Positions 552-61,144 of a DNA stretch of 64,000 nucleotides are shown here, one piece after another. The notes below the pieces were generated by a model. The model did not search any database, was not told the DNA's origin, and saw only the letters and a list, made by a program, of their open reading frames with translations. A program made the position numbers and the translations under genes. This stretch comes from Candidatus Kaiserbacteria bacterium RIFCSPLOWO2_01_FULL_50_24. Its GTDB lineage: Bacteria; Patescibacteriota; Minisyncoccia; Phycocordibacterales; UBA2100. How positions within the stretch are numbered: the stretch's first letter is position 1; every line of letters begins with the position of its first letter. Location: NCBI GenBank assembly GCA_001783335.1, contig MFLU01000010.1, forward strand, positions 30,122-94,121, given 5' to 3'.

Positions 552-587
552 TGTAAAAATAAAATATCACGAAGAAATCCACACAGT

Positions 588-766
588 TTAAATCCAAATT
601 TCAAAGTTCAAATGTCAAATAAAATCCAAAACTTAAATATCAAATACAACCCGCGTCGCAAAGAGTGGGATGCGTTTAGTCATTTGAATTTTGGGCTTTG
701 TTTGACCTTTGGATTTTGACATTTGAAATTACTTTTAATTTCGGGCTTTGAAATTTGGATTTACTT
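588..766. repeat. Family-A MITE-like foldback element (arms built from aaatccaaat / caaagttcaaa / aaaatccaaa units)
   Basis: A second copy at 60979-61122 has a nearly identical 55-nt left arm. The right arm is an imperfect reverse complement of the left. Confidence 0.75.
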
Positions 767-963
767 AAGGATATCCACACCCCCATCTTGCGTCATCGCC
801 AACACTTGGCATATTCTTACTCTTGGTGAGGGTGGAGCACCGGAAGAATGACTCCCACGACCATCAGGCTTCGGCCTTCGGCGTGCGACCCTCCCTTCCA
901 AACATCTGCCCTCACTGCTTCTCTTCGAGCTCGCACCTCGCGGGCTCTTTTGTTTCTAAAAAA

Positions 964-3227: not shown

Positions 3228-4061
3228 ATGTCATACATGCTTATCACCAAAGCAGACGGAGAGCAGGAGCCATTTAGCCCCGATAAACTACGCACATCAC
3301 TTCGGCGCGCGGGCGCGTCGAAAGATGCGGAACACAATATCGTGGAGCGTATTACCAATACTCTGCGTCCCCACATAACAACAGGAGACATTTATCGGCA
3401 GGCGTTTGACGAACTACGCCGTGTTGAGGAGAAACCGATTGCGGCTCGGTATTCCATAAAACGGGCGATTTTGGATCTCGGCCCCTCTGGGTTTCCGTTT
3501 GAACAATTTTTTGCAGAGGTGCTTCGCGCACATGGGTGGGTATGTCGCGTGGGAGTTGCTTTAACCGGCCGCTGTGCTCCGCACGAGGTGGATGTTGTTG
3601 CTGAGAAAAATGGAAAGCGCGTCGGCGTTGAGGCGAAATTTCATAACGACGCTGGTGGTAAGACCGACATCAAAGACGCGCTCTATGTGAAAGCCCGTTT
3701 TGACGACCTTCACAGTGCGCCGGAGAACTCTTCGCGAACAGACGAATACTGGCTAGTTACTAATACTCGCTTTACCAGAAACGCCATACGCTACGCGCAG
3801 TGCTCCAATCTGAATCTCATAGGCTGGGATTATCCGCGTTCGCGGAATTTATTGACGCTCATAGAAGAGGCGCACGTACACCCACTCACATGCCTTACCA
3901 CACTTTCAGAAGGCGAGAAAAAACGGCTACTGGATCAGCGAGTGGTACTTTGTAAAAGCGTTCAAACTCCGCATGTGTTGAAAGAACACGGCGTACAGCC
4001 AAATCGCATTCCCGAAGTGCTAGACGAAGCAAGGCGCTTGTGCGGCCCCCACACCTATTGA
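3228..4061 (+). CDS. ATP-cone domain protein fused to a restriction-endonuclease-like PD-(D/E)XK domain
   Basis: The N-terminus (MLITKADGEQEPFSPDKL...) is ATP-cone-like. The central segment FEQFFAEVLRAHGW...VDVVAEKNGKRVGVEAKF fits a D...E-x-K nuclease core of the Mrr/REase fold. Confidence 0.55.
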   Translation: MSYMLITKADGEQEPFSPDKLRTSLRRAGASKDAEHNIVERITNTLRPHITTGDIYRQAFDELRRVEEKPIAARYSIKRAILDLGPSGFPFEQFFAEVLRAHGWVCRVGVALTGRCAPHEVDVVAEKNGKRVGVEAKFHNDAGGKTDIKDALYVKARFDDLHSAPENSSRTDEYWLVTNTRFTRNAIRYAQCSNLNLIGWDYPRSRNLLTLIEEAHVHPLTCLTTLSEGEKKRLLDQRVVLCKSVQTPHVLKEHGVQPNRIPEVLDEARRLCGPHTY

Positions 4062-4183
4062 GGCATCGTGTTTTATTGCCAATCGTGGGTTAACCACTAA
4101 AACTTGTTTCAAAAGCATTGGCGGATATAGAGGTTTGGCGCACGAAAACACAGAGGGCAATTATGCCTCAATAGGTGTGGGGG
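4046..4183. repeat. Perfect 21-bp inverted repeat (cccccacacctattgaggcat / atgcctcaataggtgtggggg) enclosing 96 nt
   Basis: The arms are exact reverse complements at 4046-4066 and 4163-4183. The left arm overlaps the stop of the upstream gene. Confidence 0.85.
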
Positions 4184-4217
4184 CGTGGAACGTGATATAC
4201 TAATGGGGTACCACAAG

Positions 4218-4440
4218 TAAAAACTAAAAATGAAAAATGAAAAACGACCCCGCACCAAAAATCTCACCATTCCTCTTTATGCATTCAAACCACGTTCGCA
4301 GATTTTGGTACGGGGCATGCAATGAAAAATTAAAAGTTAGGCTCAAGGGTGCTCCCGACGGAATGTAACTTTTAACTTTTAACTTTTAACTTTTAACTTT
4401 TAACTGCAATTTTTACCTTTTCATTTTTACTTTTTAATTT
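4218..4440. repeat. Family-B-related AT-rich foldback element containing an (AACTTTT)5 tandem heptamer at 4367-4401
   Basis: The left arm aaaactaaaaatgaaaaatgaaaaacga and right arm ttttaccttttcatttttactttttaattt are inverted copies. The arm motif is shared with the repeats at 16251, 18171 and 18621. Confidence 0.7.
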
Positions 4441-4447
4441 ACATACC

Positions 4448-14779: not shown

Positions 14780-14794
14780 TGGGGCGCTTCGTCG

Positions 14795-14896
14795 GCACAC
14801 CTGTTTGGGAGACCGCTCACGCCTCGCTCCAGTTTTGTCTTTCAGCAAAACTGGAGCGAGGCTCCACTACGGTTAAGTCTCCCAAACAGGTGTGCC
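14795..14896. repeat. Nested perfect palindromes between infA and rpmJ (outer 20-bp arms ggcacacctgtttgggagac, inner 17-bp arms gcctcgctccagttttg)
   Basis: The exact reverse-complement arms are 14795-14814 with 14877-14896, and 14821-14837 with 14847-14863. Confidence 0.85.
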
Positions 14897-15016: not shown

Positions 15017-15131
15017 CATGAAAGTTAAAGCATCGGTGAAGAAAATTTGTCAGCACTGCCGCCATGTGCGCCGGCGAGGGCGATTACGGGTTATTTGCAA
15101 GAATCCGAGGCATAAGCAGAGACAGGGGTAG
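15017..15131 (+). CDS. rpmJ: 50S ribosomal protein L36
   Basis: The translation [37 protein letters not shown] matches L36. Confidence 0.9.
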
Positions 15132-15240
15132 CTTCTAGCTTTGAGCTTCTAGCTTCTAGGAAAAACCTGGAGGTTGGAAGCTCCAAGTCAGGGGCACAAA
15201 GTAAAAACCTATAAGCTAAAAGCTAGCACCTAGAAGCTAT
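15132..15240. repeat. Family-D intergenic repeat (agcttctag units, ending ...cctagaagctattc)
   Basis: Other copies lie at 44909-45001 and as a fragment inside leuS at 50228-50269. Confidence 0.75.
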
Positions 15241-15245
15241 TCATT

Positions 15246-15639: not shown

Positions 15640-15800
15640 GCAAATATATTTCAACCTGCAAATGGCTACGAATTTACAAAAAGCACCAAATTCCAAGCAC
15701 CAAATCACAATGAACAAAATACAAAATACAAAACAAAATACGTTTGAGACATTAGGATTTAGAATTTCGGTATTGTTTGGAATTTGGGATTTGTAATTTG
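15640..15800. repeat. Family-C intergenic repeat (ccaagcaccaaatcacaa ... tttggaatttg-gatttgtaatttg)
   Basis: Its ends are shared with 23305-23455 (inverted orientation) and 30271-30410, with fragments at 46903-46958 and inside leuS at 50612-50686. Confidence 0.75.
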
Positions 15801-15815
15801 TTATTTTCCTTATCT

Positions 15816-16250: not shown

Positions 16251-16378
16251 ATTAAAAACTAAAAGTGAAAAATGAAAAACGACAACTTAAAATGTAAAAC
16301 CACACACACGCTTCTCGGAAGTTTTTAACTTTTCATTGTCGTTTTTAGATTTTCATTTTAAATTTTAAACTTGTTATT
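16251..16378. repeat. Family-B intergenic foldback repeat (arms aaaaatgaaaaacgacaa / ttgtcgtttttagattttcattt, core cacacgcttctcgg)
   Basis: It is nearly identical to 18621-18748, and a truncated copy lies at 18171-18266. Confidence 0.8.
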
Positions 16379-18170: not shown

Positions 18171-18266
18171 AAATTAAAAATGTAAAACCGAATACACGCT
18201 TCTCGGCAGTTTTTAACTTTTCATTGCAACTTTTAGATTTTCATTTTAAATTTTTAACTTACTACC
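18171..18266. repeat. Family-B repeat, truncated copy
   Basis: It shares cacgcttctcggcagtttttaacttttcattg...tttagattttcattttaaattt. Confidence 0.75.
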
Positions 18267-18620: not shown

Positions 18621-18748
18621 ATTAAAAACTAAAAGTGAAAAATGAAAAACGACAATTTAAAATGTAAAACGGCACACACGCTTCTCGGCAGTTTTTAACT
18701 TTTCATTGTCGTTTTTAGATTTTCATTTTAAATTTTAAACTTGTTGTT
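18621..18748. repeat. Family-B repeat, full copy
   Basis: It is nearly identical to 16251-16378. Confidence 0.8.
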
Positions 18749-23292: not shown

Positions 23293-23304
23293 TACCACTG
23301 ACGT

Positions 23305-23455
23305 AATAAATAACAAATTACAAACCTCAAATTCCAAACAAATTCAAATAACCGAAATCACAAATTCAAAACTGGTACGTCGTGTTTTGTATTTAGTAAT
23401 TAGAATTTAGATATTTTGATATTTTTTGTGATTCGGTACTTGGAATTTGGTGCTT
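23305..23455. repeat. Family-C intergenic repeat (inverted relative to the copy at 30271)
   Basis: It contains ggtacgtcgtgttttgtatttagtaattagaattt, the reverse complement of the segment at 30310-30345. Confidence 0.75.
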
Positions 23456-23530
23456 TTTAGAAATTTGTAACCACTTGTAGTATTCGTATCATTTGCAGAT
23501 CGGCCATAATTTTCGTAGTAGTATATTGCC

Positions 23531-24075: not shown

Positions 24076-25554
24076 ATGCACATGGTACTAAAAGAATTGC
24101 GTACGCACACATCTGATATGTGGTCTAAGATTCAAACTAAGTACATGTGCACTTTGTTCACACGAGCTGCGAAACGTGTTCCCGCATACGCGCGTTTTCT
24201 AAGAAACAGTAAAGCGCATCAACGAACTCCAACGGCACAAACATTTCTTGCAATCCCGCCAATCACAAAAGACAATTATCTTCGAAAATCTTTATTCCCC
24301 GATTTATTTTGGGATGGGGTAATCAGTTCGCCCCACATGCTTACAGCGACTTCTGGCTCGACGGGGAAACCTGTGTACTTCGCACGCTCTCACTCGGTAA
24401 ACGATCAGTCATCCGCCATCCATGAACTGTTCTTTACTTCGTGCTCGCTTTCCTCAAAGAAATCAACACTCGTTATTGTGTGTTTTGGGATGGGTGTATG
24501 GATAGGTGGTTTCATTACGAGCGAGGCGTTTGAACTTATGGGCCGGCGCGGCTATCCGGTTGCCGTAATAACTCCGGGACTTAACAAGCAAGAAATTTTT
24601 AAGGCGCTAAAGCAGTTGGCGCCGCAGTACGAACAGCTTATTATTGCCGGCTATCCGCCATTTGTTAAAGACGTGCTCGATGAGGCCGAAGAAAATGGTA
24701 TCTCTATACGAAAACACAAAACAGCACTCGTGTTTGCAGCCGAAGCATTCACGGAATCATTTCGTGAATACGTTGCAAAAAAAGCGAATGTGCGAAATGT
24801 TTTGACAGACACAATGAACATTTACGGGAGTGCAGATTTGGGGACCATGGCGTTTGAGACGCCCGTGTCCATACTTATCCGACGACTTGCATGTAAACAT
24901 CCCGATCTTTTCCGAGCCCTATTTGGTGGAACAGATAAAACACCGACGCTTGCGCAGTACATCCCACACTTCACATCCTTTGAGGCATTGAAAGGCGAGT
25001 TATTGGTAACCGGAGACAGCGCGACGCCACTCATACGATATGCGATAGGAGATCGCGGCGGCGTGTACACCTATGATGAAATTTCAAGCATATGCAAAAT
25101 GCACGGCGTACATCTTACAAAAGAACTTGCCCGCGCGGGTATCGCGACAAAAACCGCTAAGCTACCGTTTGTGTTTGTCTACGAACGTCTTGACCTCTCC
25201 ACAACACTATACGGCTTGCAGATATATCCGGAGATTATTCGCGAGACATTGCTCCAGAGTGGATTTGTACAACGTCTAACGGGACGCTTAACGCTTGTAA
25301 CAAAATTTGATGATCGTCAAAATCAATATCTGGAAATAAACGTTGAACAACGGCGTGGGGCAGAAGTTGAAAAAGCGCTTGCCGCAAAGTTAAAAGCGGA
25401 GATCGTAAAAAACTTAAAACTAAAAAGTGCAGAATTTTACGAGCTCTCCTTGCATCTCGGCGAACGTACAGAGCCGCGACTCATATTCTGGCCGCATGAA
25501 GACCCTACATACTTTCGGCCGGATACGAAACAGAAATGGGTCGTGAAGTCTTAA
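24076..25554 (+). CDS. PaaK/F390-synthetase-family adenylate-forming enzyme (phenylacetate-CoA ligase-like)
   Basis: It has the AMP-binding motif TSGSTGKP and PaaK-like length and layout. Confidence 0.7.
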   Translation: MHMVLKELRTHTSDMWSKIQTKYMCTLFTRAAKRVPAYARFLRNSKAHQRTPTAQTFLAIPPITKDNYLRKSLFPDLFWDGVISSPHMLTATSGSTGKPVYFARSHSVNDQSSAIHELFFTSCSLSSKKSTLVIVCFGMGVWIGGFITSEAFELMGRRGYPVAVITPGLNKQEIFKALKQLAPQYEQLIIAGYPPFVKDVLDEAEENGISIRKHKTALVFAAEAFTESFREYVAKKANVRNVLTDTMNIYGSADLGTMAFETPVSILIRRLACKHPDLFRALFGGTDKTPTLAQYIPHFTSFEALKGELLVTGDSATPLIRYAIGDRGGVYTYDEISSICKMHGVHLTKELARAGIATKTAKLPFVFVYERLDLSTTLYGLQIYPEIIRETLLQSGFVQRLTGRLTLVTKFDDRQNQYLEINVEQRRGAEVEKALAAKLKAEIVKNLKLKSAEFYELSLHLGERTEPRLIFWPHEDPTYFRPDTKQKWVVKS

Positions 25555-30270: not shown

Positions 30271-30410
30271 AATCCCAAGCACCAAGCACCAAATCACAAA
30301 CAATATCTAAATTCCAATTACTAAATACTAAACACGACGTACCCATTTTGAATTTGTTATTTCGGTGATTTGAATTTGTTTGGAATTTGTTATTTGTAAT
30401 TTGGAATTTA
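30271..30410. repeat. Family-C intergenic repeat
   Basis: See the entry at 15640. Confidence 0.75.
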
Positions 30411-30412
30411 TT

Positions 30413-31750
30413 ATGTCAAGTATGGAACGTACTCTCATAAAAAATCTCTCGGAAAATATCGGGAAAGCCGTCTCGGTAAGCGGCTGGGTATCGGTACGGC
30501 GCGACCAGGGAAAACTCGTATTTTTTGAGATTCGCGACCGTTCTGGAAGCGTACAGGGGGTGGTGTTGCCAAAGTCCGATGCCATTGAGGCGGCAAAGGG
30601 GGTGCGCCCGGAGTATGTCGTTTCCATATCAGGCCAAGTGAATAAACGACCGGAAAAAAATGTGAACCCGAATGTACAAAATGGCGATATTGAGCTTGAG
30701 ATACAAGAAATTGAGATACTTTCTAAAGCGGAGACACCGTTTGAGCTTGGTGCCGAGCTCAACCTTGATACCTATTTAGACCATCTGCCATACACCGTAC
30801 GCTCGCCACGGGCGCGAGATATTTTTGCCCTGCAGGCGACCATCATAGAGGCGTTTCGCGACTCGCTCCGTAAACGCGATTTCGTTGAATTTCAGGCACC
30901 GGCAATCGTAGGAGGCGATGCCGAGGGTGGCGCCGCCGCGTTTAAGGTTGATTACTACTACGACCAAAAGGCGTACCTTGCCACAAGTCCCCAGCTCTAT
31001 AAGCAGATCATGGTTGGCGCGTTTGAGAGAGTATTCACAACACCGAAGATTTGGCGGGCGGAAAAACACGCTACCCCCCGCCATCTTTCCGAGCTCACAC
31101 AAATGGATTTTGAGATGGGATTCATCAAAGACCATTTTGATGTGATGGATGCGCTTGAAACCACCATGCGTGATGTGGTAGCGGTCGTGCGCCACAAGCA
31201 CGCCGACGCACTTCAGCGTTTCAATGTTGAATTGCCCAAGCTTCCTAATGAGAAGTTTCCGATACTCAAACTGAAAGAGGCGCAAGAGTTGCTCGGCGTA
31301 CCGCATGAGCCAGATCTTGAACCCGAGCAGGAACGACTGCTTCACGAGTGGGCGCTTAAAGAGCACGACTCAGATTTTGTTTTTGTAACACATTTTCCTA
31401 CATCCAAGCGTCCGTTCTATACATATGAAGACCCGGAAGATTCCGGCCATACACGTTATTTTGACCTGCTTTTCCGCGGGCTCGAAATAAACTCCGGTGG
31501 TCAGCGCGTGCATGAGCACGATGTGCTTGTGGAACGCATTAGACAAAAGGGGTTAGACCCGGAAAAATTCGCTTTTTATTTGCAAACATTCAAAGTGGGC
31601 ATGCCACCTCACGGCGGGTGCTCCACTGGCCTAGAGCGCTTAACTGCGCGCATGTTGGGACTTGCAAACATTCGTGAAGCCACTCTCTTCCCGCGCGATA
31701 TGACCCGTATTGACGCTCGCTTATCGGAAAATACGGAAGAAGAAACATGA
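30413..31750 (+). CDS. aspS: Aspartyl-tRNA synthetase, archaeal/short class IIb type (an AsnRS assignment cannot be excluded)
   Basis: It has an OB-fold N-terminus, class II motifs (FRAEDxxxxRH-like, GGCSTGLERL), and a length of about 445 aa. Confidence 0.85.
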   Translation: MSSMERTLIKNLSENIGKAVSVSGWVSVRRDQGKLVFFEIRDRSGSVQGVVLPKSDAIEAAKGVRPEYVVSISGQVNKRPEKNVNPNVQNGDIELEIQEIEILSKAETPFELGAELNLDTYLDHLPYTVRSPRARDIFALQATIIEAFRDSLRKRDFVEFQAPAIVGGDAEGGAAAFKVDYYYDQKAYLATSPQLYKQIMVGAFERVFTTPKIWRAEKHATPRHLSELTQMDFEMGFIKDHFDVMDALETTMRDVVAVVRHKHADALQRFNVELPKLPNEKFPILKLKEAQELLGVPHEPDLEPEQERLLHEWALKEHDSDFVFVTHFPTSKRPFYTYEDPEDSGHTRYFDLLFRGLEINSGGQRVHEHDVLVERIRQKGLDPEKFAFYLQTFKVGMPPHGGCSTGLERLTARMLGLANIREATLFPRDMTRIDARLSENTEEET

Positions 31751-38894: not shown

Positions 38895-40196
38895 ATGCAT
38901 GTCATTACTCGCTTTCCGCCATCGCCGACCGGTTTTTTTCACATCGGGAGCGCACGCACGGCACTTTTCAATTATCTTTTTGCCAAAAAACACGGCAGTA
39001 CAATGCATCTGCGGTTTGAGGATACAGATAGGGATCGTAGCAAAACCGAATACGAAGATGATATTATTAGTGGACTCGCATGGCTCGGCATATCGTATGC
39101 GCCGGAAGTTACGCGGCAATCGGAACGGCTGGAAAAATACCGCCCGTACATCGCGAAACTTTTAGAATCGGGTGCGGCATACGAGGCCGAACCCTCGGAA
39201 GGCGACCCGGCAAAGAAGGCGGTGCGGTTCAAAAATCCGAACACGACGATTACGTTTTCCGACGCCATTCGCGGCGATGTGTCGTTTGATACAACCGAGC
39301 TCAAGGATTTTGTAATCGCAAAGAGTGTCGAAGAGCCGCTCTACCATCTCGCGGTCGTTATAGACGATCACGACATGGAAATTACTCATGTCATCCGTGG
39401 CGAAGATCATCTATCAAATACGCAGCGCCAAATACTTATAATGGAAGCGCTTGGTTTTGCACGCCCGGTATATGCGCACATGCCGCTTATACTTGGGTCG
39501 GATCGTTCAAAGCTGTCAAAGCGGAACTTTGCGGCTTCCGTAAACGATTATCGAATTTTGGGTTACAAACCAGAAGCGTTTCTGAACTACCTCGCCCTCC
39601 TTGGTTGGACCCCGCCTTCCGGAAAAGAGAAATTGTCGCTCGACGAAATGGTTGCGGAATTTGAACTCTCCGATATTCACAAGAGCGGCGCCATGTTTGA
39701 TATGGAGAAACTGAAATGGCTAAACCGTGAGTATTTACTTGAGATGCCAGAGCCGCTTTTTGAAGATGAGGTGCGCCAACGCACCAGTACGCTAGATTGG
39801 GAAATGACAAAAAAACTTACCCCTTTCGTGAGAGAGCGTATCCACACATGGTCCGACCTCAAAAATCTGGCTGGGGAATATGGATACTGCTATGCACCTC
39901 CGACTCTTGACCCTAAGGAAATTTCCGGAAAAAACACGGACGCGGAAGGCGCCGCGCGGCATCTTGAAGAACTCGGCCACATGTTAAAAACAGCATCTTT
40001 CGAAAATGCTGATTCAGTGAAAACGGCTGTTTGGGACTACGCAACAAAAGAGGGTAGGGGGGCGGTCTTGTGGCCTCTGCGCTACGCGCTTTCCGGCCGC
40101 ACTCGCTCACTTGATCCGTTTGCTATTGCGACAATACTCGGCAAAGAGAAAACACTTAAACGCATAGACGTGGCGCTTGATATACTGAAAGAATGA
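38895..40196 (+). CDS. gltX: Glutamyl-tRNA synthetase (short form)
   Basis: It has the HIGH motif (FHIGSARTALFNY) and KLSKR. The stop overlaps the next gene's start (ATGA). Confidence 0.9.
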   Translation: MHVITRFPPSPTGFFHIGSARTALFNYLFAKKHGSTMHLRFEDTDRDRSKTEYEDDIISGLAWLGISYAPEVTRQSERLEKYRPYIAKLLESGAAYEAEPSEGDPAKKAVRFKNPNTTITFSDAIRGDVSFDTTELKDFVIAKSVEEPLYHLAVVIDDHDMEITHVIRGEDHLSNTQRQILIMEALGFARPVYAHMPLILGSDRSKLSKRNFAASVNDYRILGYKPEAFLNYLALLGWTPPSGKEKLSLDEMVAEFELSDIHKSGAMFDMEKLKWLNREYLLEMPEPLFEDEVRQRTSTLDWEMTKKLTPFVRERIHTWSDLKNLAGEYGYCYAPPTLDPKEISGKNTDAEGAARHLEELGHMLKTASFENADSVKTAVWDYATKEGRGAVLWPLRYALSGRTRSLDPFAIATILGKEKTLKRIDVALDILKE

Positions 40197-41569
40197 CGCC
40201 AAAGTACAAAAAACACAGATTGCACAAAGTACGAACAAAATACAGAGCACAGGAACCGAAAACGCAAACGAATACAAGCAGTTTGTGCTTTGTGTTTTTA
40301 ATCGTTTGTGTTTTGTTTGTGTCCTGGTTCCTGTACTTTTTGCTTTTCGCCACAGTTTCAGCGCAAACGCGGGAAGAACTTGAGAGCGACATTGCTAAAT
40401 ACAACAAGCAGATAGAAGAACTGGATAAAGAAATCGCCCAGTACGAGCGTGAGCTCACAGAGATAGGCACACAAAAGCAAACGCTTCAGAGCATCGTTGA
40501 CGGACTGGATCTTCAGAGAAGACAGCTCCAAGTAAAAATACGCTCCACGAGAAGTAAAATAGGTACATTAGAACTTGAAATAGAACGACTGGACGAAAAC
40601 ATCGGAAACAAAGAGGTTCTTATAGGACACGGCATGGAAGCGCTCGGAGAGACCATACGCTCCATAGACCGCGCTGATCGTCAGAGTTTTGTGGAAACGG
40701 TGCTTGGCGGAGGCACTGTAACGTCGTTGTGGGACGCCGTGGAGACCGTGCAGAAAGTCCAGCTTGCCGTGCGGGAGAATATCACCGCGCTAATGCGCGC
40801 CAAAGAATCTCTGGCCGAAAACCGCACCGTCTCCGAAAAGAAACACTCCGAACTTTCTGCAGAAAGAAGAACGCTTTCCTCGCAAGAGCAGTCATTGGCC
40901 ATCACCGCACGAGAGCAGAAGAATCTCCTGGATGACACGAAGTCGCAGGAGTCCGCGTATCAGGCCACCGTGGAGCAGAAACAAGCGGAAAAAGTGGCGT
41001 TTGAAGCCGCGCTTTTTGAACTCGCATCCGCACTTGAATACACATTTGACCCAAGCCGTATTCCACCGCCAGGCAAGGGAATTCTACGCTGGCCTCTGGA
41101 CAACGTTTTCGTCACACAAGAATTCGGAAAAACATCTTCTTCTGGACGTCTTTACGTTTCGGGCACTCATGACGGTGTGGACTTTCGCACAAAGACGTCC
41201 TCTAATCCTTCTGGGATAGGAACGCCAATAAAGGCCGCACTTTCTGGAATCGTTCTGGAGGTAAATCACGGCGCGGTGCCTTATTGTCAGTATGGAAAAT
41301 GGATACTTATACGCCACAGTAACAATTTAACAACTCTTTACGCACATCTTTCAGACATCGCCGTAAAAAAAGATAGCACTGTCGCAACAGGTGAAATCAT
41401 AGGATACTCAGGTAATAGTGGCTATGCGACCGGTCCGCATCTCCACTTCACCGTGTACGCATCAGATGCGCTATCTTTCAGGGACCACAAATGTAACAGT
41501 GGCAAAACCGTCGCCATCCCCATCGCCGCGCCGACAGGATACCTGAATCCGTTAGATTATTTGAATTAA
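40193..41569 (+). CDS. M23-family metallopeptidase with an N-terminal coiled-coil (EnvC/NlpD-like murein endopeptidase)
   Basis: The C-terminal LytM domain has HxxxD and HLHF motifs. A basic N-region plus hydrophobic segment (signal/anchor) is encoded by the family-E repeat. Confidence 0.8.
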   Translation: MTPKYKKHRLHKVRTKYRAQEPKTQTNTSSLCFVFLIVCVLFVSWFLYFLLFATVSAQTREELESDIAKYNKQIEELDKEIAQYERELTEIGTQKQTLQSIVDGLDLQRRQLQVKIRSTRSKIGTLELEIERLDENIGNKEVLIGHGMEALGETIRSIDRADRQSFVETVLGGGTVTSLWDAVETVQKVQLAVRENITALMRAKESLAENRTVSEKKHSELSAERRTLSSQEQSLAITAREQKNLLDDTKSQESAYQATVEQKQAEKVAFEAALFELASALEYTFDPSRIPPPGKGILRWPLDNVFVTQEFGKTSSSGRLYVSGTHDGVDFRTKTSSNPSGIGTPIKAALSGIVLEVNHGAVPYCQYGKWILIRHSNNLTTLYAHLSDIAVKKDSTVATGEIIGYSGNSGYATGPHLHFTVYASDALSFRDHKCNSGKTVAIPIAAPTGYLNPLDYLN

Positions 41570-44908: not shown

Positions 44909-45001
44909 AGCTTTTAGGTTTCAGTTATTAGCTTAATAGAAAACCATACATGTTATTTTCCCACACCTAGAAGCTAGAAGCTAGTACCTAGAAGCTATTC
45001 C
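44909..45001. repeat. Family-D intergenic repeat
   Basis: It ends with cctagaagctattc, like the copy at 15132-15240. Confidence 0.75.
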
Positions 45002-46902: not shown

Positions 46903-46954
46903 AGTTTTGGTATTTGATATTGTTATTTATTTGGAATTTGTGTTTTGTAATTTG

Positions 46955-48235
46955 TTATTTGCCAGTGAGTAGCAACTCAATGGCCGCCTCCATCTGCGGA
47001 TCGCGCTTCGCTTCCCTGTCTTCGTCAGAAATTTCCACCTCAACATCCGGCACGATGCCATCTTGCGGGATTTGCGCCCCATCGGGTCCGAGCCAACGCG
47101 CCACGGTAATCTTCAGTGCCGTTTCTGGAGTAATGTCCACCAATTCCTGCACTGAGCCCTTGCCAAAGGTGCTTTCTCCGACAAGTGTTGCTTTACCGTA
47201 ATGCTGGAGCGCCACGGCAAAAATTTCTGAAGCGGAGGCAGAGCCTTGGTCTATAAGAACAACCACTTTCAAATTGTTATTAAAAATATCGTACCCGCGA
47301 CTTCTGTGAACAATATTCCCTACATTTCCCCCGTAATCTTCTTCCACAACGATCTTTCCGGATGGCAAAAACCAACTCGCCATTTCCACCGCCGCCTCAA
47401 GATAGCCACCCGGATTGCCACGCAGATCAATGATAAGATTTTGTGAACCGGATTCTACGAATTCACGCAAGGCACTCCTGAAAAGCCCCGCAGAATTTGC
47501 CGAAAAATTCATAAGTTCAATAACAAACACGTCTTGTTTTGCTTCCTTGGAATCCCCGCTTTCCGTACTGATGGTTTGCTTTATGCGCTCCGTACTGATA
47601 GTGGGGATGTCAATGGTGTCGCGCGTAACGCTAATGTCGCGCGGCTCGCTCCATCCTTCGCGCACGACCGTAAGCACAACCACCGTCCCTTTCGGGCCAC
47701 GAATGCGGCGCACTGCTCCGCTAATGTCTAGGCCGCGTGTCTCGAGATGATCTATATGCGTAATTCTGTCGCCACTTTTTAACCCGGCACGTTCCGCAGG
47801 CGTCCCCTTAAGCGGTGACACCACTGTAAGCACCTGGTTGCGTACGGCAATTTCCATACCTACGCCCTCGAAACTTCCGTTCATGTCTTCGCCAAAAATT
47901 TGATTTTCAACGGGCGGCAAAAAGAAGGTATAGGGATCATCAAGCGAGTTCGCAAGGCCTTGTATCATTCCCCATACGCGAATCTCTTCAACACTTGCAG
48001 TGGTTGTCGGGGTTGAGGTAGAAACGGCAGCGGGAACAAAACGCTCGTCAATAATACGCCACGCCTTCCAGACTGGCGAAAAATTGACTCCTTCCGGCGG
48101 TGTCTCCGCTAACATCGCAAGAGAAACATCCGTGCGCGCACCCATTACCAAACCGATAGAGAAGCTGACCGCAGTAAGGCCCACCACACCAAGCACGAGA
48201 AGCGCGCGTCTATTGTGTTGTGATGTTTCTGGCAT
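46955..48235 (-). CDS. ctpA: Carboxyl-terminal processing protease (S41) with a PDZ domain
   Basis: It has the GNPGGYL motif, the LIDQGSASASEIFA motif and a PDZ segment. Confidence 0.9.
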   Translation of the reverse strand: MPETSQHNRRALLVLGVVGLTAVSFSIGLVMGARTDVSLAMLAETPPEGVNFSPVWKAWRIIDERFVPAAVSTSTPTTTASVEEIRVWGMIQGLANSLDDPYTFFLPPVENQIFGEDMNGSFEGVGMEIAVRNQVLTVVSPLKGTPAERAGLKSGDRITHIDHLETRGLDISGAVRRIRGPKGTVVVLTVVREGWSEPRDISVTRDTIDIPTISTERIKQTISTESGDSKEAKQDVFVIELMNFSANSAGLFRSALREFVESGSQNLIIDLRGNPGGYLEAAVEMASWFLPSGKIVVEEDYGGNVGNIVHRSRGYDIFNNNLKVVVLIDQGSASASEIFAVALQHYGKATLVGESTFGKGSVQELVDITPETALKITVARWLGPDGAQIPQDGIVPDVEVEISDEDREAKRDPQMEAAIELLLTGK

Positions 48236-49768: not shown

Positions 49769-52645
49769 CTAAGTTCTTAAAACAAAGTTTACAAGGCGAT
49801 TTGGAACGACGATTACTTTTACCACTTCCCTGCCCTGTAGTCGCGTGGCCACCACTTCACGAGCGGCGCGTTCGTGCTCGACTTTGTCTGCCCTCGTAGC
49901 GATGGTCACCTCGCCGCGCACCTTGCCATCTATCTGCACGGCAATGGTTACCGTTTCGTCTTTCAGAAACTTTTCATCATATTCCGGCCACTTTTGGAGA
50001 TGAATGGACCCTTTTCCGCCACATTGAGACCATAGCTCCTCCGCGACATGCGGCACAAATGGAGCAAGGAGTTTCAAGAATATTTCCCACTGTTTTTTTC
50101 CTATCGTTTTTTCTTTCTCTGCGGCATTCATAAAAATCATCAATTGACTTATTGCCGTATTGAATTTGAACGCCGCAATATCTTCCGTAATTTTCTTTAT
50201 TGTTCGGTGTAAAGATGTTTGCAGATTTGGATTTTCTGGAAGCTTAAAGCTAGAAGCTGGAAGCTGACCCCGTCGCCATATACGCTCCAAAAAACGGCGC
50301 ACGCCTATCAGACTCTCGGTTTTCCATGCAATCGTATTCTCAAATGGCCCCATGAACATTTCGTAAAGGCGTAGAGTATCAGCTCCGTAAAGCTTCACCA
50401 CGTCGTCGGGATCAATGGTGTTTTTGAAGCGCTTACTCATTTTTCGGCCGTCTTCGGCAAGCACAAGCCCGACAGTATGAAGCTGTATGAATGGTTCCAT
50501 CGTTGAGACGATGCCTATGTCGTGCAGAAATTTGTGCCAGAAACGGGCATATATGAGGTGTCTCGTTGCATGTTCCACGCCGCCCACATACACGTCAACC
50601 GGCAACCATTTTTGTATTTTGTTTTGAAGTTTGGTACTTAGAGATTGTTTGGAATTTGGTACTTGTGATTTGAGATTTTCGCTTATGCAATAAGCGATGT
50701 GGTACCAGCTTGAGCCCGCCCACTGCGGCATCGTATTCGTTTCGCGCCTCCCTTTCCCGCCGCACGTCGGACACTTCGTATTCACCCACTTCGTGATATT
50801 GGCAAGCGGTGATTCACCGGTGCCGGACGGCGCATACGATTTCACTTCCGGCAATATAACTGGCAGATATTTTTCCGACACCGGCACCACGCCGCATTTT
50901 TCGCAATGAATCATGGGGATCGGCTCACCCCAGTATCGCTGGCGCGAAAAAATCCAATCACGCAATTTGTAGGTAGTTTTTGGTGTGCCGAAACGCGCAG
51001 TTATTTTTTTTCTCGCCTCCGCACTATCCGTACCGCTAAACTCGCCCGAATCAATGAGAATACCCTCGCCCATATATGCATCCATGCCAGAAAATATGCG
51101 TTCAGTAATGATCTGTGCTTCAGAATGTTGAAACCGTGTTTTAGTGAGGTCACGGGCGGGTATCCACACCACCTCATGCTTCTCCGCTTCTTTTGGATCA
51201 ATCTTCTCGCGTGCATCGCTTGCAAGCTCAAAAAGCAATAGAGAATTACGTGCAACGCGATTGACCCCCTTGTGCGCCGCATAGAATTCCGCCTGCGCAT
51301 CGCCACCAAGTTTGCGCACAAATCGCACATCGGTGTATCCGGTTTCCTCGGCTATCTCGCGCCGCGCCGACTCGACAACGTCTTCCCCATTCTCCACGCC
51401 GCCCGTAACATACGTGATCCACGGTTGTTTTTTCCAGCGGAGCGTCAGATAGCGATCGGTTTTCGGATCGTACACAATGTTGATCGTTGCACGCCGATGC
51501 ACCACTTCCTTGTTCGGTTGATGCGGATTGGTCGGATCCGGCAGATGCGGCATGATAACGTCGCGTATGGAAATATTGTATTTTTTAGCAAACTCAAAAT
51601 CGCGCTCGTCGTGCGCCGGAACCGCCATAATGGCACCTGTTCCTACACCCGCCAGCACATAGTCTGCGACAAATATCGGTATTTCTTCTTTCGTCGCCGG
51701 ATTAACTGCCCTTATTCCTTCAAGTAGAACTCCCGTCTTTTCCTTATGTTCCTGCCGTTCCAGATCAGACTTTTTTGCTGCAGCTTTTATATAATCCTCC
51801 ACCTCATCTGAATTTACGCAAGTCTGACTTGCGTAAATAGACTGTACGAGCGTATGCTCCGGTGCGAGTGTAAGATATGTCGCTCCAAACAGTGTGTCGG
51901 GTCTCGTTGTAAAAACCTCTATTTGAAATTTGGATTTTAAAATTTGAAATTTTATCAGTGCGCCCTCGGATTTTCCGATCCAATTTCTCTGCAGTTCTTT
52001 TATGTACTCCGGCCACGGCAGAGTGTCGAGGTCGGCAAGCAGTCGGTCGGCGTAGTCGGTAATGCGTAGAACCCATTGCGGCAAGCGTTTTTGCTCCACA
52101 ACCGTGCCGCAGCGCTCGCACGCATTTCCTTCCAGATCTTCATTTGCAAGCCCCGTCTTGCACGACGGACACCAGTTGATCGGCTCATCAGACTGATACG
52201 CGAGGCCTTTTTTAAAAAGCTGGAGAAAGATCCACTGCGTCCACTTGTAGTATTCCGGGTCGGTAGTGTTTATTTCGCGGTCCCAATCGTAGTCAAAACC
52301 TATATGCGAGAGCTGTTCCTTAAAGCGCGCGATGTTTTTCTTCACCGCCACGCGCGGATGCACTTTATTTTGGAGCGCATAGTTCTCCGCCGGAAGACCG
52401 AATGCATCCCACCCCATTGGGTGTAGCACCGATCTTCCGCGCATACGCTGAAATCGCGAGTAAATATCGCTCGCGATGTAGCCCTTGGGATGCCCCACGT
52501 GGAGCCCCTCTCCCGAGGGATACGGAAACATATCAAGTACATAGCACTTCTTTTTTCCTTTTTTTTCAGTGGAGCGGTATACTTTTTTCTTCGCCCATTG
52601 CAGTTGCCATTTTCGCTCAATAGATTTGTGATCGTATCGCTTCAT
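49769..52645 (-). CDS. leuS: Leucyl-tRNA synthetase carrying an inserted Nudix domain (about aa 365-520) and two repeat-derived low-complexity inserts
   Basis: It has HVGH (HIGH), KMSKR, the editing-domain motif TTRPDT and a LeuRS C-terminus. The insertion after the editing domain contains a perfect Nudix box GGVENGEDVVESARREIAEETGY. Confidence 0.95.
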   Translation of the reverse strand: MKRYDHKSIERKWQLQWAKKKVYRSTEKKGKKKCYVLDMFPYPSGEGLHVGHPKGYIASDIYSRFQRMRGRSVLHPMGWDAFGLPAENYALQNKVHPRVAVKKNIARFKEQLSHIGFDYDWDREINTTDPEYYKWTQWIFLQLFKKGLAYQSDEPINWCPSCKTGLANEDLEGNACERCGTVVEQKRLPQWVLRITDYADRLLADLDTLPWPEYIKELQRNWIGKSEGALIKFQILKSKFQIEVFTTRPDTLFGATYLTLAPEHTLVQSIYASQTCVNSDEVEDYIKAAAKKSDLERQEHKEKTGVLLEGIRAVNPATKEEIPIFVADYVLAGVGTGAIMAVPAHDERDFEFAKKYNISIRDVIMPHLPDPTNPHQPNKEVVHRRATINIVYDPKTDRYLTLRWKKQPWITYVTGGVENGEDVVESARREIAEETGYTDVRFVRKLGGDAQAEFYAAHKGVNRVARNSLLLFELASDAREKIDPKEAEKHEVVWIPARDLTKTRFQHSEAQIITERIFSGMDAYMGEGILIDSGEFSGTDSAEARKKITARFGTPKTTYKLRDWIFSRQRYWGEPIPMIHCEKCGVVPVSEKYLPVILPEVKSYAPSGTGESPLANITKWVNTKCPTCGGKGRRETNTMPQWAGSSWYHIAYCISENLKSQVPNSKQSLSTKLQNKIQKWLPVDVYVGGVEHATRHLIYARFWHKFLHDIGIVSTMEPFIQLHTVGLVLAEDGRKMSKRFKNTIDPDDVVKLYGADTLRLYEMFMGPFENTIAWKTESLIGVRRFLERIWRRGQLPASSFKLPENPNLQTSLHRTIKKITEDIAAFKFNTAISQLMIFMNAAEKEKTIGKKQWEIFLKLLAPFVPHVAEELWSQCGGKGSIHLQKWPEYDEKFLKDETVTIAVQIDGKVRGEVTIATRADKVEHERAAREVVATRLQGREVVKVIVVPNRLVNFVLRT

Positions 52646-59382: not shown

Positions 59383-59873
59383 ACTGGCGACATAGAGCGA
59401 GTGAAATGAAAATGTACTCATTTGCATTTCCGAGCCGAGCCCACACACTTACTTTTGGTTTTCGCTTTGCGCGTTCTGGCAAGCCAAAACAAACCGAAAG
59501 TAAGTGTGTGGGCCGCGGAGGGAGACAACCGGTGTTTAACGCCCCGTGGTCTCGCAATGCGCCGGTTTACGCGTCATTTTTTCTGCCACCACTACACCAT
59601 AATATAACGACACTACACATCTGAGCCGGTCGGCCCAGATGTGTAGTGTGTGGTTCGGTGACTATGCAGGCAAAGGAATTGACGAGTAGACAGATATGCA
59701 CGGCCTATACTGACAGCCTATACCAGAACAACTCACTTTCGAAATCGTCGCGTGTTATTCTTGTGAAAGAGAAAGATAATGGATTGTTGTGGTTGTAATC
59801 ACCGGGTTGATCGTGGGGATATTCATTGTGAACTGAAAGAGCGTACCGGCACTGCAGTGCCGGTCTTTTTTTG

Positions 59874-60470: not shown

Positions 60471-60671
60471 TGTGTTCTATTGTACCTGCGATACCAGAAA
60501 ACACAACCCGCACACTTACTCTGGCATTGCTTTTAATTCTGCCGACCGAACCATGTTGGTAGAGCGATTTTTATGAGATAACACAAGGTCAAGCACTGAA
60601 TATGTTGAAAAAGCAGAATAATGCCAAAGTAAGTGTGCGGGAAAGACACCAAGCGCAAGTAAGTGTGCGGG

Positions 60672-60986
60672 CTACGCGCGACAGGAAGCAAGAAAGCAGA
60701 GCGCCTGCACGTTGTCCTCACTCATTTGACGCGTTGGGCGCTTCGCGCCACATGTTGTGCATCGGTGAATAATGCGGTAGGTTGGACTCGAGCCCTCCAC
60801 GCGCGTTGGTTCCATCAAACCACCGCACTTGTTTGCCCTATCGCCGGGTTCGTTGTCCACATGTTTACTCCATAAACAACGCGGACAGTGATTGGTATAG
60901 CCGTTCCCCTTTACATCAAGACCACACCTATCACACGCGAAATCTTCAACTTGTTTTATGAAAACCATAGGTATAAGCAAATCCAA
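60672..60986 (-). CDS. RNHCP-domain zinc-ribbon protein
   Basis: It has CDRCG...TNHCPRCLWSKHVD...YRIIHRCTTCG. Confidence 0.6.
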   Translation of the reverse strand: MDLLIPMVFIKQVEDFACDRCGLDVKGNGYTNHCPRCLWSKHVDNEPGDRANKCGGLMEPTRVEGSSPTYRIIHRCTTCGAKRPTRQMSEDNVQALCFLASCRA

Positions 60987-61122
60987 ATTTCAAAGCTCAA
61001 ATGTCAAATAAAATCCAAAACTTAAATATCAAAAAGCCTGCGGTACAAAGAATTGTATGTGTTTAGTCATTTGGATTTTGGGCTTGGTTTGAACTTTGGA
61101 TTTTGTCATTTGGATTTAAACT
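60979..61122. repeat. Family-A MITE-like foldback element, second copy
   Basis: It matches 54 of 55 positions of 591-645. Confidence 0.75.
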
Positions 61123-61144
61123 ATTTGAACTTCTTGGTATGCAT

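Follow-up and report, generated by a model that had tools for sequence, protein, structure and literature searches.

In-frame segments resembling dispersed heptanucleotide repeats in the leucyl-tRNA synthetase gene of a Candidatus Kaiserbacteria genome

Introduction

How does part of an essential gene come to resemble the repeats that lie between other genes of the same genome? The question is raised by leuS, the gene of leucyl-tRNA synthetase (LeuRS), in a 64-kb stretch of contig MFLU01000010.1 of Candidatus Kaiserbacteria bacterium RIFCSPLOWO2_01_FULL_50_24, here called the window. An initial annotation, made from the sequence alone, had found two in-frame segments of leuS that match intergenic repeats. 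It proposed that mobile or recombinogenic repeats had been exapted as surface-loop insertions, or else that the gene was the source of the intergenic copies. Here, three such segments are described, each corresponding to a single arm of an intergenic heptanucleotide repeat element, and their possible origins are weighed.

Three segments of leuS match intergenic heptamer families

The window contains 17 tandem arrays of period 7, against 0.2 in dinucleotide shuffles. When periods 5–12 were scanned, no period but 7 showed a comparable enrichment, and periods 8–12 yielded no arrays; arrays of heptamers specifically characterise this genome. Tandem Repeats Finder likewise reported many period-7 arrays in the window, two of them in leuS (50236–50266, 4.4 copies; 51921–51952, 4.6 copies). 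The arrays are mostly intergenic, in the spacers of ribosomal-protein and ATP synthase operons, and are mostly paired in inverted orientation, each pair supplying the two arms of a long imperfect hairpin. Unit and flanking sequence sort them into four families, with units of the TTTCAAA type (A), AAAAATG/AAAAACT (B), CACCAAA/TTCCAAG (C) and TAGCTTC (D). The 73 kb of source-genome sequence covered (the window and 8.9 kb on its right) holds at least six loci of family D and two to four of each of the others.

In a k-mer scan of the whole window, the strongest coding matches were three segments of leuS, termed here site D, site C and the third segment (Table 1). Control leuS segments gave z values of ~0 against the intergenic repeat set. 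The best local alignment of site D to the same set has z = 8.7, and its 23-mer AGCTTCTAGCTTTAAGCTTCCAG is identical to 15130–15152 at 21 of 23 positions, a two-mismatch match of which none is expected from 100 dinucleotide shuffles. The match initially reported at 50228–50269 is thereby confirmed. In the mRNA sense, the array (50236–50265) reads AGCTTCC AGCTTCT AGCTTTA AGCTTCC AG, which corresponds to four AGCTTCN units followed by AG. By eye, the flanks are collinear with the intergenic copy, the array being preceded by GGGGT and followed by G(G/A)AAAA, and the unit number and this array exit are the same in both. Read in the leuS frame, the canonical (TAGCTTC)n gives *LLASSF*LLAS and the intergenic copy at 15129 gives *LLALSF*LLGK, while leuS itself reads QLPASSFKLPEN, exactly two in-frame TAG codons having been changed to CAG and AAG.

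At site C, the plus strand of 50644–50686 aligns with 15771–15813 at 36 of 43 positions, collinearly and without rearrangement (z = 9.3). Each of the four family C elements likewise has a right arm that aligns with the site, the non-periodic ends ATTG and TTTTC(G)CTTAT included. The previously noted likeness of 50612–50686 to the family C end at 23435 holds, through the shared GGTACTTG and GGAATTTGGT, although the best match is 15771–15813 instead. The frame and translations given for both sites were also correct, GQLPASSFKLPEN being residues 793–805 and ISENLKSQVPNSKQSLSTKLQNKIQK residues 654–679. The third segment, absent from the initial annotation, is identical at 26 of 30 positions to a family A arm near 700–730 (z = 7.2). 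A comparable case outside leuS is a family B left arm in frame within mnmA, which matches 18623–18669 at 37 of 46 positions, including the non-periodic GACAATnTAAAATnTAAAA (z = 4.8), and falls in a 27-aa insertion relative to two Parcubacteria orthologues. On the strength of these alignments, the genic segments are homologous to the intergenic elements, with a homology that reaches past the periodic part.

The leuS segments consist of single arms only; no inverted partner was found inside the gene, and no hairpin or excess RNA folding was detected at the segments (z of 0.06 and −1.1). Arms of 32, ~45 and ~80 nt alter the protein length by a net 0, ~+4 and +10 aa, respectively. In the orientation that they have in genes, the units of family A, family C and the mnmA array contain no stop codon.

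Placement in the protein and lineage distribution

The segments were placed by alignment with the 23 closest orthologues (57–64% identical) and with Thermus thermophilus LeuRS (1H3N), and on an AlphaFold model built on 24 sequences. All three occupy permissive loop positions, namely a low-confidence stretch, a variable linker and a hairpin tip. Site C lies inside a stretch of 48 residues (aa 642–689) with a predicted local distance difference test (pLDDT) score below 50, where it takes the place of the otherwise conserved YLRFMDPxN...KEKYW and contains a 10-aa insertion that is unique with respect to both the 23 orthologues and 1H3N. Site D forms a length-variable linker between helices 776–793 and 806–824, just before the conserved LHxTIKK. 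The third segment forms the tip of the β-hairpin preceding TTRPDT, and its length is the same as in orthologues. The initial proposal stands in part, in that the segments are homologous to the intergenic families, are read in frame and lie at permissive positions.

Sites C and D have no counterpart in the 23 closest orthologues, so that the observation named in the initial annotation as a refutation, the same peptide segments in orthologues, was not made for these two sites. By contrast, the third-site peptide is shared by orthologues, among them comparison loci L142 (KFQISNFKFQIEV, with four perfect TTTCAAA units) and L159, and orthologous arrays occur at this position in L142, L159, L126, L146 and L154. 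Because KFQISNFKFQIEV is shared in this way, the third segment is old and not specific to this lineage.

The window LeuRS is 100% identical to that of Candidatus Kaiserbacteria bacterium RIFCSPHIGHO2_01_FULL_50_13. The same protein sequence is found in three NCBI metagenome-assembled genome records, under separate accessions, and on 13 contigs, and hence the leuS segments are not assembly artefacts. The next-nearest LeuRS is ~63% identical. No length polymorphism, empty site or insertion polymorphism was seen among strain variants, since the 13 contigs and four members of the 90% cluster are identical at all three sites. Copy-number variation between strains was not found either, in a weak test at the protein level only among very close strains. 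The window LeuRS also carries a NUDIX hydrolase domain (aa 383–513) inserted within the CP1 editing domain. PF00293 is present in all of the best 120 LeuRS homologues, some of which add alpha/beta-hydrolase or HAD domains and reach up to 1558 aa.

Heptamer arrays recur in leuS of other bacteria

The comparison set comprised 84 retrieved leuS loci (designated by L numbers) with 82 leuS genes, or 83 genes with that of the window; open reading frames (ORFs) in the comparison loci were called mechanically. Stringent period-7 arrays were present in 20 of the 82 retrieved genes, and thus in 21 of 83 with the window gene, while 62 had none. The array-carrying genes are diverse; their median pairwise identity is 56%. 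In the retrieved loci, leuS contains 32 arrays in all, which cluster at four or five positions, three of which coincide with the segments of the window gene (Table 1). Under a strict criterion, the 83 genes contain 18 segments of period 7, compared with 7, 2, 2 and 0 of periods 5, 6, 8 and 9. The array density in leuS (0.155/kb) is level with that of non-ORF DNA (0.149/kb), and is 7.6 times that of other ORFs of at least 300 aa (0.020/kb; binomial p = 6e-10).

The units in leuS vary from genome to genome and include TTTCAAA, AAATTCG, GATGTCA, AAAGTCA, CAGCTTA, GGGGACT and CCCCACT. Locus L131 has a CAGCTTA array at site D in the same frame as the window gene. At the hairpin site, where the arrays are partly inherited and not all represent independent events, the modal length (15 aa) is found in 8 of the 13 sequences that resemble arrays, and overwriting consequently fits better than insertion. 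Programmed frameshifting at slippery AAATTTC units was rejected as a general explanation, as GGGGACT, CAGCTTA and GATGTCA occupy the same positions.

Other bacteria with small genomes have occasional in-frame arrays in topA, obg and tatD (L130, 11016–11053; L159, 6173–6210; L178, 5956–5998). AGCTTNN-type arrays and other heptamer units are found in contigs of Nomura-, Zambryski-, Ames-, Jorgensen-, Kuenen- and Saccharibacteria (L021, L038, L039, L047, L058, L093 and L096), and several other genomes of the Candidate Phyla Radiation (CPR) have the AGCTTNN arrays between genes. Locus L058 carries seven arrays in 5.8 kb. A scan of genome contigs for AGCTTNNAGCTTNNAGCTTNNAGC returned at least 120 loci, the source genome not being among the matches listed; among these listed matches, 48 fall within a stop-to-stop ORF of at least 150 aa, although many such ORFs may not be genes, and none is LeuRS.

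Arrays of a Treponema LeuRS share one unit

The LeuRS of a termite-gut Treponema (L138) has 977 aa, against a typical ~820 aa, and was compared with that of L171 (82% identical). At the hairpin site it carries a GGGGACT array that adds 12 aa, and at site D an inverted array pair. In addition, a low-complexity insertion of 128 aa lies between inverted GGGGACT and AGTCCCC arrays (L138, 3575–4013), at the CP1 position where Parcubacteria have the NUDIX domain. This insertion is common to relatives of L138 that are 72–79% identical (L207, L208 and L209 were examined alongside). Where L138 has GGGGACT/AGTCCCC, the orthologous arrays of L207 read GGGGAGT/ACTCCCC; this holds for all units of the two arms and also for site D. 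A single-base change has thus spread over at least 11 units in two orientations, with the complementarity of the arms kept. The separate arrays of the Treponema LeuRS therefore evolve in concert.

Intergenic elements and other genes carrying arms

The elements of the four families are listed in Table 1. The two 128-bp family B spacers are near-identical over their whole extent, from the stop codon of one gene to the start codon of the next, and the TAG stop codon of rpmJ is the first unit of the family D array in the rpmJ–rpsM spacer. In the 9 kb that adjoin the window on its right, the ATP synthase spacers contain at least three further family D arrays (locus L121). No Rfam family was matched at gathering threshold anywhere in the window. 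At the family B boundaries, one spacer alignment was inspected and showed neither target duplications nor terminal inverted repeats; no systematic search was made.

A complete hairpin is located within the 5' end of an M23 peptidase ORF, where the A-rich arm encodes a basic, lysine-rich N-terminus and the T-rich arm a transmembrane helix. A three-unit array in a paaK-like gene (25408–25428) was not significant (z = 1.5). On the right of the window, at a distance of ~10 kb, lies an IS200-like Y1 transposase gene (Y1_Tnp, E = 3e-6; L121, 463–1173), with the hairpin GCGGCAAGGCCGGGCCTTGCCGC on both sides; this hairpin is GC-rich and unrelated to the heptamer families. The gene is also flanked by a duplicated ~45-nt stretch of a neighbouring gene. 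No transposase with ends matching the heptamer elements was found in the 73 kb covered, where Y1_Tnp was the only transposase seen.

Table 1. Positions of leuS, its repeat-like segments, related elements of the window and array positions in leuS of the retrieved loci. Window features are given in nucleotides, leuS array positions in residues (aa) of the window LeuRS; dG, folding free energy.
Feature	Position	Strand	Remarks
leuS, leucine--tRNA ligase	49769–52645	minus	958 aa; from ORF and Pfam
Site D, in-frame single family D arm	50225–50271	minus	encodes GQLPASSFKLPENPN (aa 793–807)
Site C, in-frame antisense copy of family C right arm	50607–50686	minus	collinear core 50644–50686; encodes ISENLKSQVPNSKQSLSTKLQNKIQK (aa 654–679)
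Third segment, TTTCAAA-type array, family A-like	51920–51952	minus	4.6 units; encodes KFQILKSKFQI (aa 232–242)
Family B left arm in frame within mnmA (1655–2755)	2046–2102	plus	encodes MQKSKIKNQNDNIKSKNQH
Complete 149-nt hairpin within 5' end of M23 peptidase ORF (40193–41569)	40197–40345	plus	dG −42 kcal/mol, z −3.3
Family A intergenic hairpin	585–790		TTTCAAA-type arms
Family A intergenic hairpin, second copy	60975–61135		
Family B spacer element, rpsK–rpsD spacer	16251–16378	plus	fold z −2.8
Family B spacer element, second copy, after rplQ	18621–18748	plus	
Family B partial copy	18171–18266		
Family B related element	4212–4447		
Family C intergenic hairpin, rpsM–rpsK spacer	15665–15813	plus	fold z −2.7; right arm 15771–15813, best match to site C
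Family C intergenic hairpin	23293–23470		copy cited in the initial annotation
Family C intergenic hairpin	30271–30425		
Family C arm, short spacer	46903–46965		
Family D intergenic hairpin, rpmJ–rpsM spacer	15123–15245	plus	dG −53.5 kcal/mol, z −5.8
Family D intergenic element, second in window	44909–45000		
leuS array position	aa 226–241		14 loci; third segment
leuS array position	aa 264–267		5 loci; no counterpart in window
leuS array position	aa ~653		4 loci; site C
leuS array position	aa 791–795		4 loci; site D
leuS array position	aa ~844		2 loci; no counterpart in window
Single leuS arrays (three)	aa ~169, 365, 516		

Discussion

On balance, and with modest confidence, we lean towards reading the leuS and mnmA segments as translated single-arm members of the dispersed heptanucleotide families of this genome, which resemble the STRR (short tandemly repeated repetitive) sequences of cyanobacteria, and as acquired by short-patch templated copying into permissive loops. 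Some 30–45 nt would have been copied from another array into the leuS loops, by entry or by overwriting, through ectopic gene conversion or template switching. The copying might be seeded by microhomology such as AAATTyvAAATT, which is encoded by the peptide K-F-[QEK]-I. Selection, acting also on hydrophilic coding, would then keep only versions whose total length preserves the frame, whose sense strand is stop-free, that is, in the A-rich orientation that codes for K, N, Q, S and I, and whose position is in a structurally permissive loop. The resulting peptides are most likely neutral passengers. The exaptation proposed initially found no support, as nothing was found that the peptides or the RNA segments do. 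The direction was likely from spacer to gene, because each family has several two-armed intergenic copies, leuS has only single arms, and the in-frame TAG codons have been replaced. The strongest indication that sequence is exchanged between arrays by templated copying comes from the concerted unit switch in Treponema.

Several observations weigh against this reading. The event between donor and recipient has not been caught, the 13 contigs and four cluster members being identical at the three sites, and the nearest other LeuRS, only ~63% identical, is too distant to show the age and the steps of acquisition. Identity to the intergenic copies is just 75–84%. Site D may predate this lineage or be recurrent, given the CAGCTTA array of L131. 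The third segment is shared with the distant L142 and L159 as both peptide and DNA, and its resemblance to family A may reflect only the common TTTCAAA unit. Finally, tolerance combined with templated copying leaves the 7.6-fold excess of arrays in leuS over other long ORFs unaccounted for. A broader proposal would be that heptamer arrays are preferentially placed or kept in LeuRS across phyla (Parcubacteria and Treponema), at the four or five fixed positions, and are matched in unit by a homogenising process that acts in trans and preserves arm complementarity. We regard this as doubtful; if true, it would imply a targeted mechanism of repeat writing or gene conversion, or a cis-regulatory role on leuS.

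[quoted passage not shown] The dispersal of the families and the near-identity of some copies, such as the 128-bp family B spacers, agree with this, as do the complete inverted-array elements that lie in frame elsewhere, at the N-terminus of the M23 peptidase and in the 128-aa Treponema insertion, and the nearby Y1 transposase gene. It is nonetheless unlikely, since leuS has single arms devoid of a partner or excess structure, the net length changes amount to 0, ~+4 and +10 aa, and a whole element in the D orientation would put stop codons into an essential gene. The hairpins that flank the Y1 gene are unrelated to the families, and the boundary alignment described above, which was not part of a systematic search, lacks target duplications. 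The mobility suggested by the initial annotation found no support either, as leuS has only single arms and neither a hairpin inside it nor an insertion polymorphism was seen. An origin in situ has about as little probability in our view. Here, polymerase slippage or transient misalignment would have expanded coding proto-repeats, and the likeness to the intergenic families would come from units favoured by the genome. In many prokaryotes, heptanucleotide simple sequence repeats (SSRs) are reported to outnumber every other class of long SSR, with slippage as a proposed cause (PMC4679880, PMC4692102); the hairpin-site arrays are usually length-neutral, K-F-[QEK]-I is itself a proto-repeat of 1.7 units, and the unit at one site differs between genomes. 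Such local slippage fits the hairpin site, but not the non-periodic flanks shared at site C and in mnmA, to which the collinearity extends. The unit count and flanks of the D array also match those of the intergenic copy, and a single-unit change would shift the frame of an essential gene.

The segments may alternatively be selected cis-elements in the leuS DNA or mRNA, which would bind a factor shared with the intergenic hairpins, pair in trans with the arms of ribosomal-protein or ATP synthase transcripts, or slow translation. An array density in leuS equal to that of non-coding DNA, the recurrence of the sites in 21 of 83 genes of diverse lineages and the complementarity kept through the concerted change in Treponema speak for such a role. 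We judge it quite improbable, as the units differ widely between genomes, the window segments have no predicted structure, 62 of the 83 genes have no arrays, arrays also occur in topA, obg, tatD and mnmA, and no functional evidence of any kind was found. That leuS was the source of the intergenic copies, as the initial annotation also suggested, is very improbable. Three families would each have to start in one gene. Every one of them is present as several two-armed copies in spacers, the D copy of leuS looks derived, with stop-removing changes relative to the family consensus, and several other CPR genomes carry AGCTTNN arrays between genes. A chance likeness due to A-rich codon usage in low-complexity loops might be considered for site C and the third segment, which are rich in A and code for K, N, Q and S, yet it is an exceedingly improbable explanation, refuted by composition-preserving shuffles that give z values of 7 to 9 for the segments and of ~0 for the control leuS segments.

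Templated copying of single arms, the reading preferred here, places the Kaiserbacteria arrays beside several known systems. [quoted passage not shown] Known examples are the STRR sequences of heterocystous cyanobacteria, GGGNATC/GGGGA(C/T)T in Xanthomonas and Nostoc, and TAACTGA in Beggiatoaceae (PMC4692102, PMC4679880). Like these, the present arrays consist of ~4 tandem 7-nt units, are genome-specific and dispersed at many loci, and lie mostly between co-oriented ORFs, often as tandemly inverted pairs; in the literature, such repeats are transcribed, and a few copies lie within ORFs, in a stop-free orientation. The Kaiserbacteria genome differs in having several unit families (A–D), none of them dominant, with degenerate arms embedded in longer conserved spacer elements. 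Its host is a CPR bacterium, and the genic copies are concentrated in one essential gene. In heterocyst-forming cyanobacteria, the gene for RNase P RNA reportedly contains STRR arrays (Vioque, 1997). They would likewise be tolerated in an essential gene, although, unlike leuS, an RNA gene has no reading-frame constraint.

Rickettsia palindromic elements occur in both intergenic and in-frame intragenic copies, and add peptides to housekeeping enzymes at fold-compatible positions (PMC10969869). The Kaiserbacteria families similarly have intergenic and in-frame genic copies. However, the Rickettsia elements are ~150 bp long and are inserted whole, each with a conserved peptide, whereas leuS has single heptamer arms of 30–80 nt that sometimes replace sequence length-neutrally and show no evident conserved element peptide. 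There is also some likeness to repetitive extragenic palindromes (REP), bacterial interspersed mosaic elements (BIME) and REP doublets forming hairpins (REPIN) with their REP-associated tyrosine transposases (RAYT, Y1), as short intergenic palindromes in operons form dispersed families and a Y1 gene is present. The heptamer hairpins differ from these in their much greater length and their internal periodicity, and the hairpin at the Y1 gene does not belong to a heptamer family. The literature searched yielded no description of such arrays from LeuRS or from CPR genomes.

These findings would extend repeat-derived peptide insertions in housekeeping enzymes, best known from Rickettsia, to the reduced genomes of CPR bacteria and to a different class of repeat, the heptanucleotide array. 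That a quarter of the related LeuRS genes examined carry arrays is unexpected for an essential enzyme. Their concentration in leuS provides one conserved locus at which the birth, turnover and loss of arrays can be followed across lineages, and the concerted unit switch in both arms in Treponema constitutes a clean natural experiment on the spread of heptamer repeats through a genome and on the maintenance of their uniformity there. Caution is required with alignments, phylogenies and structure predictions of LeuRS, all of which are affected by array segments.

Other repeats and features of the window

Several further repeats were observed in the window. A 45-nt tandem repeat of 5.2 copies (68% match) is located at 1097–1329, where ORFs overlap on both strands. 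Perfect inverted repeats of 20 and 22 nt lie outside the heptamer families, at 14794–14896 (after infA) and at 4045–4184 (at the end of gene 3228–4061). Both direct and inverted copies of a dispersed repeat that is rich in GC, AAGTAAGTGTGCGGG, lie at 59439–59513 and 60507–60671. Genes converge at ~41.6 kb, and the cumulative GC skew peaks at ~34–38 kb; this region may correspond to the replication terminus.

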